From Eledone cirrhosa (lineage: Eukaryota), in NCBI GenBank assembly GCA_964016885.1, contig CAXHJY010000454.1:1-35354 (forward strand): a DNA stretch of 35,354 nucleotides. Reading direction: 5' to 3'. Shown here in pieces: positions 6,419-7,012 of the stretch. The translations under genes and the position numbers were made by a program. The notes beneath the pieces are model-generated. The model searched no databases, was not told the origin of the DNA, and was given only the letters and a program-made list of their open reading frames with translations. Each line of letters starts with the position of its first letter. Position 1 is the first letter of the stretch.

Positions 6419-6465
<47 letters not shown>

Positions 6466-6604
6466 TAAAAGAGTTAAACAAGGTTCAATGAATACATCAA
6501 CGAATGAGTTTTACAATAGATTGGAAGCACTCAACCGCTGGTTTTCCAGAGTTATTAATATTAATTCAAATATTAACAAAATAGATATACTTGTGATCAA
6601 TTAT

Positions 6605-6669
6605 ATTTTATTATACATATTTCAGAGGTACTGAATTAAGTTCAACAGTACGTCCTCATCAGATAAAAT
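6605..6669 (-). ncRNA. Minimal type I hammerhead ribozyme motif (family A, left arm)
   Basis: Near-exact reverse complement of 6767-6831. Confidence 0.75.
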
Positions 6670-6766
6670 AAAATTATACATGACATACCCTGCCATGGTA
6701 GCTGGTTAAGATACCTTGATTAAATCTTAACCATCTACCATGCCAGAGTATGTCATGTATAATTTT

Positions 6767-6831
6767 ATTTTATCTGATGAGGACGTACTGTTGAACTTAA
6801 ATCAGTACCTCTGAAATATGTATAATAAAAT
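6767..6831 (+). ncRNA. Minimal type I hammerhead ribozyme motif (family A, right arm)
   Basis: AUUUUAU-CUGAUGA (6774-80)-stem II (GUACUG/CAGUAC)-GAAA (6813-16)-UAUGUA-UA-AUAAAAU; stem I is a perfect 7 bp. Confidence 0.78.
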
Positions 6832-6967
6832 TTAATTGATCACAAGAATATCTATTTTGTTAATATTTTGAATTAATATTAATAACTCTGGAAAACCCAC
6901 TGTTGAGTGCTTCCAATCTATTGTAAAACTCATTCGTTGATTTATTCATTGAACCTTGTGTAACTTT

Positions 6968-7012
<45 letters not shown>

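Follow-up and report, generated by a model that had tools for sequence, protein, structure and literature searches.

The window, a whole contig of 35,354 nucleotides (35 kb) from the 3.0-Gb genome of Eledone cirrhosa, in which simple repeats are abundant, contains a palindrome at 6462–6970 that lies between (TA)n runs and bears one hammerhead ribozyme per strand (Table 1). This 500-bp structure, first described in the initial annotation, is real: 6469–6712 mirrors 6712–6970, the arms match at 245 of 258 aligned positions, and the ribozyme motif is found on both strands. The arms are approximately 5% divergent, which rules out a fold-back read artefact. Contigs from three sequencing runs on a single sample, the kind of run being unrecorded, also span the stretch; they have no bearing on expression or starts. 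The window holds no ORF part of the family to which the palindrome belongs, and this copy, which has neither promoter nor ORF, is probably inert.

Table 1 Features of the palindrome and its borders, in window coordinates
Feature	Position	Strand	Remarks
(TA)n target remnant, left	6423..6462		Common to short end of neighbouring hammerhead insertion
Left arm: 5′-truncated pLTR and tail, L (long) end	6469..6712	-	Inner end ~14 nt downstream of predicted +1
Left-arm tail, between S and L start sites	6469..6557	-	Mirrors 6880–6970
Type I hammerhead, left arm	6605..6669	-	Predicted cut between 6612 and 6611
Head-to-head junction	6712..6712		One base common to both alignments
Right arm: pLTR and tail, L end	6712..6970	+	Inner end ~2 nt downstream of predicted +1; no TATA box
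Type I hammerhead, right arm	6767..6831	+	Predicted cut after 6824; near-palindromic helix III, dimer type
Predicted 11-bp AU-rich stem-loop	6857..6885	+	Contains S (short) end site at 6879; S unused as end in window copy
Tail, ~90-nt non-coding 5′ leader	6880..6970	+	In full-length copies followed by internal (AT)4–5 run, with ORF ~55 nt later
(TA)n target remnant, right	6971..7013		Common to long end of related insertion

Hammerhead motifs and predicted fold

Each arm contains a type I hammerhead with the core nucleotides and stems I–III in place, comprising CUGAUGA at 6774 (plus strand) and 6662 (minus strand), a bulged stem II, GAAA and a 7-bp stem I. Helix III is near-palindromic (AUAUGUAU). 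A hammerhead descriptor matches the right-arm motif, and none of 3,000 dinucleotide shuffles of the right arm. An Rfam search returned no hammerhead family at the palindrome even at E ≤ 10, only microRNA-like matches below the gathering score. In an alignment of the related hammerhead families of the window (the L022 row was left out), the core is kept and stem II differs.

A hammerhead was expected from transcripts of either direction; this is true of the sequence and fails for the predicted fold, in which an RNA spanning the whole palindrome forms one long hairpin with 466 of 509 nt paired and the ribozyme buried. The hammerheads of Penelope-like elements (PLEs) are described as cleaving poorly on their own (PMC4209133) or as needing a protein (PMC11167929) in the sections cited here. 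The lower divergence of the catalytic core (0.9% versus 3.2%) is set aside as evidence because the sample had been chosen on part of that core. An AATAAA hexamer at 6824–6829 coincides with the 3′ strand of stem I and is a candidate for a role in 3′ end formation.

Origin of the arms

A search of the genome with the right arm gave 2,515 candidates, 40 of which were scored, and the exact 26-base ribozyme core has 1,390 matches in the genome (0 for the reversed control). Many copies run upstream into a common non-coding region and then an ORF. Full-length copies carry the arm at both ends, in the order repeat, tail, (AT)4–5, ORF, ~2 kb of non-coding sequence and repeat, giving a unit of approximately 4.5 kb in which the arm passes unbroken into the ORF.

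The ORF encodes YRDD, DKT, RWR, a CxCX5C linker, CxH and a C-terminal YIG region; CxxC is intact in one copy (L035), and CCHH is absent as judged by eye, not against the alignment of PMC8557442. One copy has the YRDD and YIG motifs within a single 750-aa frame, the longest in the family copies examined, with the N-terminus shifted. No fully intact ORF was present among the family copies examined, and most of 88 protein matches contain stops. The family protein has 675 homologues at E ≤ 1e-20, the nearest named one being from Argonauta hians (40% identity); among the best 120 of the 675, DK[TS] is present in 119, RW[KR] in 93 and DKG in none. Pfam scans of the ORF gave no RT or GIY-YIG match, so that assignment to the EN+ PLEs rests on motifs and homologues; a PDB sequence search with the ORF yielded nothing useful.

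By these motifs and homologues the family has the single ORF with RT and C-terminal GIY-YIG typical of EN+ PLEs, together with pLTRs in partial tandem, an inverted 5′-truncated copy and the optional tail at one end, here ~90 nt long (the window copy is tailed at both ends). Its motifs are the Hydra-clade marks listed in PMC8557442: DKT for DKG and an RWK-type motif (RWR here), the CxCX5C linker, CxxC and CxH around the catalytic E and N, no CCHH, a canonical hammerhead and insertion into (TA)n. Its length departs from that clade, units of ~4.5 kb standing against the generally <3 kb that PMC8557442 gives as a tendency. The Neptune clade, our first guess, is ruled out, being characterized by a CX2-5CxxC linker, CCHH and DKG where this family has DKT and CxCX5C.

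As judged from sequence, each arm is a terminal repeat with its adjoining tail, from a Penelope-like element of ~4.5 kb that encodes RT and GIY-YIG and has Hydra-clade motifs. The Penelope-like origin proposed in the initial annotation is supported by the continuity of the arm with an RT and GIY-YIG ORF in full-length copies, and the autonomous partner sought there, with the same end, was found in the ORF-bearing copies that have the arm at both ends. The same unbroken passage into the ORF speaks against its further proposal of a separate non-coding, non-autonomous ribozyme retroelement. Other families with the same motifs are represented by L037:1759–3582 (minus strand) and by protein matches of ~60% identity, some with stop-free frames of 689–743 aa.

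Outer ends and their pairing

The 3′ ends of the arms were mapped in a first sample from contig C1, for which the 100 core matches at the head of the listing were taken; these gave 77 loci, seven duplicate or split loci being dropped; at 18 of the 77, only 1.5-kb flanks were available. Nearly all ends (123 of 128) fall at one of two sites, termed S (69 of 128; window position 6879) and L (54 of 128; 6970, one of these being an internal repeat that continues into the ORF), with 5 of 128 elsewhere. By a strict count, a TA run of at least 10 nt follows 93 of the 123. Within the element itself, the S site is TA-like and sits inside a predicted stem-loop, while (AT)4–5 comes directly after L; both have TA microhomology to (TA)n, and both could pair with a (TA)n primer. 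The fixed outer end at (TA)n that had been anticipated is therefore borne out as to fixity, and not as to its being single. Genome-wide, exact ends number 1,730 for L and 1,329 for S.

The two ends are used in complementary pairs. Copies are arranged head to head at 52 of the 77 loci; 42 of these pairs have both ends at S or L, as 37 L+S, 5 S+S and 0 L+L, and 10 have one end that lies elsewhere or is not assignable. If ends were independent, 20.7 mixed pairs would be expected among the 42 (p = 1.4e-7). A second sample, anchored on exact L ends and consisting of 40 consecutive listed loci outside the first (one skipped), comprised 23 L+S, 1 L+L, known as such beforehand, and 16 not assignable. 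The window copy is L+L and departs from the L+S rule; it belongs to a rare type, the rate of which is taken from the contig C1 samples. Two neighbouring hammerhead families, scored by eye, show the same tendency: they gave 13 L+S, 1 S+S and 2 unclear among 27 distinct loci, and 11 L+S among 28 loci, the rest in each being not assignable.

A third, minor end site lies ~25 nt upstream of L at L120, L163 and L126, where (TA)n follows. Just 3′ of S, a short motif (6880–6935, 7060–7110 on the minus strand and 33660–33725) is kept in three otherwise diverged families; situated between the start sites, it is a candidate protein-binding element. Five further loci (L173, L176, L177, L184 and L189) represent a simple-repeat-rich family in which just the final 48 nt of the tail are present, with the end at L; this may be host sequence carried along with a captured end.

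Arm overlap, junctions and inner ends

Partner arms are related to one another: in 28 of 32 pairs they are closer than the median other copy, and the number of minor alleles they have in common, 114, exceeds that in any of 1,000 re-pairings (mean 39, maximum 71). Later gene conversion could account for part of this similarity. The arms of the window copy share two near-private variants, seen in 0 of 71 and 1 of 39 other arms.

The extent of the arms was compared in 60 L+S pairs. In 38, the S arm passes the upstream limit of the L arm by >20 nt, and in 22 it is nested within the L arm; the arms do not overlap in 14, and in 10 both extend >60 nt upstream of the reference pLTR start. Arms of ≤96 nt are more frequent among L (14 of 60) than among S (4 of 60; p = 0.019), although the first sample taken by itself shows no significant excess (7 versus 4 of 37, p = 0.52).

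Of 52 junctions, 25 are short overlaps, 3 blunt joins and 24 fillers, and the inner breakpoints are variable, as predicted, with no junction common to two of the sampled palindromes. From copy to copy, the arms reach different distances into the autonomous element, including its 3′ UTR and ORF, and 29 of the 52 head-to-head loci span ≤600 bp. Small tandem arrays of the repeat occur at 2 of the 77 loci. The junctions of L080 and L118 contain tandem repeats (65-bp and 92-bp) that correspond to the beginning of the terminal repeat, a pattern suggestive of RT copying the RNA 5′ end several times over.

Inner ends are concentrated at one position. Of 120 inner ends, taken from BLAST limits and hence blurred by several bases, 40 fall in a single 29-nt bin at a TCACT motif and 2 in the bin upstream. 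A TATA box precedes the A of TCACT by 31 nt in 42 of 66 regex matches, some of which are unrelated sequence, a spacing that fits a polymerase II promoter. We infer that the pile-up reflects run-off from the RNA 5′ end, the transcription start at the Inr-like TCACT being predicted from the motifs and the end pile-up; the arms of the window copy end shortly past this predicted +1 (Table 1). RT stalling at a predicted hairpin near TCACT could be an alternative cause. A rotifer element has a similar TATA/TCACT pair (PMC3846280, in the part cited). The ribozyme cut was also considered as a 5′ end hotspot and rejected, with 2 of 120 inner ends in that bin; one full-length copy begins near it.

Formation of the palindromes

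The palindrome consists of two 5′-truncated copies of a PLE terminal repeat and tail, probably placed head to head when both ends of one (TA)n cut primed reverse transcription on element RNA. Both parts of this reading go back to the initial annotation. Priming from both cut strands is supported by the L+S pairing, by the fixed ends with TA microhomology and by variants common to partner arms; the pile-up of inner ends, the relative reach of the two arms in L+S pairs and the extension of both strands by the Poseidon protein (PMC11167929) also count in favour of the scheme. The RNA would begin at TCACT, 31 nt after the TATA box, and would remain uncleaved. The element endonuclease would cut both strands of (TA)n, one cut end annealing at S and the other at L, ~90 nt downstream; the L-primed copy would then halt behind the S-primed copy or displace it. 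Copies primed in the 5′ repeat would run off the RNA 5′ end after ~170 and ~265 nt, and end-joining would unite the two cDNA ends. In the window copy, L would have been used twice, on two RNAs or as one site twice. Against this reading stand the window copy itself, which is outside the L+S rule and has arms that differ at 12 of 244 sites (three commonly variable), and the in vitro behaviour of Poseidon, which showed neither strand bias between start sites nor target homology (PMC11167929).

A more specific form of this scheme, slightly less likely than not and put forward tentatively, makes programmed asymmetric twin priming the integration route of Hydra-type Penelope elements: two TA-like landing sites on a single uncleaved RNA would be taken up by different (TA)n cut ends, the trailing RT would displace the leading cDNA, and run-off at the RNA 5′ end would mass-produce short hammerhead palindromes. 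If true, this would cover the tail, the inverted partner and the targeting of microsatellites, and would be common to autonomous elements and retrozymes.

Priming from two cut ends might instead take place on two separate RNAs that a protein dimer keeps together, in which case the protein or the cut geometry would determine the L/S asymmetry; we regard this as unlikely, though a serious contender. It accounts for L+L and S+S copies and for fully overlapping long arms, such as the 10 of 60 pairs that both pass the reference pLTR start by >60 nt, and a dimer is predicted for Poseidon (PMC11167929, in the part cited). However, the allele sharing would not arise if RNAs of many different source loci were paired at random, unless both came from a single active locus, and the model leaves unexplained why L arms halt inside the tail. 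Improbable, and refuted as a general route, is fold-back self-priming, in which one cDNA snaps back and copies itself into the second arm (a related model is set out in the cited part of PMC3846280). The variants common to both arms, the 22 nested pairs and the L+L window copy would suit such an origin, but a snap-back copy must lie inside the first arm, which is not so in 38 of 60 pairs; the 14 pairs without overlap cannot have been made in this way, and the second fixed end at S with (TA)n is left unaccounted for. The family statistics therefore argue against fold-back as the general route.

Two further explanations invoke other kinds of element. A separate non-autonomous hammerhead retroelement, retrozyme-like and mobile as a short unit, is largely refuted and very improbable. 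Short stubs do far outnumber ORF copies, as in the 29 loci of ≤600 bp, true tandem retrozymes with the same end pattern lie next door (the 522-bp family described below), and the repeat itself forms the two small arrays noted above. These points are outweighed by the varying reach of the arms into the autonomous element's 3′ UTR and ORF, by the lack of any junction common to two sampled palindromes and by the absence of a TATA box from the window arms; non-LTR retrozymes are tandem hammerhead monomers of ORF-less families, and there are no tandem units at this locus, in a family that has an ORF. An MITE or foldback DNA transposon with TA target sites would likewise be short, non-coding, inverted and TA-flanked. 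It is refuted, and its probability negligible, given the unequal ends of most copies, the varying inner junctions and the continuity with an RT ORF, where an MITE would have identical terminal inverted repeats and a fixed internal sequence.

Relationship to known systems

In L1 twin priming, the two strands of the target both serve as primers on a single RNA, so that the 5′ part becomes inverted; one primer is at the poly(A) end and the other at a variable internal site, and the copies do not overlap. The present family is alike in the use of both strands and in the inverted part; in contrast, its two sites are both fixed and internal, and its copies usually overlap.

Among the closest known systems are the Hydra-clade PLEs (Craig et al. 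2021, PMC8557442), including Penelope-13_HM and Hydra-1_Obim. According to the sections of that work cited here, these have RT followed by C-terminal GIY-YIG, with DKT, RW[K/R], CxCX5C and CxH, as well as a terminal-repeat hammerhead, a (TA)n target and a tail that is often one-ended, and Penelope-13_HM has an inverted 5′-truncated copy with a hammerhead on each strand (supplement). The present family differs in its ~4.5-kb unit with a ~2-kb non-coding 3′ part (generally <3 kb in the clade), in its ~90-nt tail (30–40 bp in the general scheme given there) and in an arm hammerhead unlike the one listed for Hydra-1_Obim.

Another is Poseidon PAc, a green anole element (Frangieh et al. 2024, PMC11167929). 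As reported in the results cited, the Poseidon protein nicks and extends both strands in vitro from two internal sites on uncleaved RNA; these RT start sites bound the tail, one has a stem-loop, and ribozyme cleavage is unneeded. The start sites of the present family, by contrast, are TA-like and target-matching, lie ~90 nt apart in the non-coding leader and are used in complementary pairs, whereas those of Poseidon are non-homologous, inside the ORF and without strand bias in vitro.

Dual minimal hammerheads on opposite strands, 100–700 bp apart, have been attributed to truncated PLEs and also have a palindromic helix III (Cervera and de la Pena 2014, PMC4209133); the cited account gives no end mapping or mechanism for them. 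Animal non-LTR retrozymes, in the part of bioRxiv 10.64898/2026.07.22.740005 cited, have a type I hammerhead, are PLE-derived and are non-coding, as is the window locus; the palindrome, unlike them, has no tandem monomers and is a fragment of an autonomous element.

The palindrome does not, then, represent an undescribed system, as had been suggested, since the opposite-strand layout is present in PMC4209133 and in the supplement of PMC8557442 (Penelope-13_HM), and inverted 5′-truncated partners with a one-end tail are described in the cited parts of PMC8557442 and PMC3846280. The locus itself is ordinary, and the value lies in the family statistics: a quantified L+S rule, the non-overlap test and the start-site pile-up were not found in the literature searched, outside the scope of which lay subscription papers, Repbase and Dfam. 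The origin of PLE inverted partners and tails is stated as open in the sections cited of PMC8557442 and PMC11167929, and with >1,000 copies, two start sites fixed to the base and a strong rule of pairing, this family makes the question amenable to a defined in vitro test. In annotation, such palindromes belong under Penelope-like stubs, not under MITEs, microRNA hairpins or new ribozyme elements.

Adjacent repeats

Three hammerhead insertions lie side by side in the window, with (TA)n runs in common. On the left of the palindrome, 5605–6422 is a head-to-head insertion of a second hammerhead family, with cores at 5849 (minus strand) and 6298 (plus strand) and one long and one short end. Elsewhere this family forms 522-bp tandem arrays at 97–99% identity, which identifies it as a young retrozyme. 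On the right, 7013–7320 is a long and short inverted insertion of a third, related family, with a core at 7224. Two further related hammerhead repeats are found on the minus strand at 33452–33767 and 35003–35354 (cores at 33550 and 35095); in the latter, most of stem II is gone, and a 30-bp tandem repeat comes before it.

The window also contains satellite arrays at 14642–19333 (period 104 bp), 21167–24123 (84 bp) and 8540–10465 (40 bp), and fragments of other RT-like reading frames at 571–1104 and 24833–27487 (minus strand). Short GC-richer inverted elements of one family, which have no hammerhead core, lie beside (TA)n at 33150–33400, 33920–34040 and 5430–5500.
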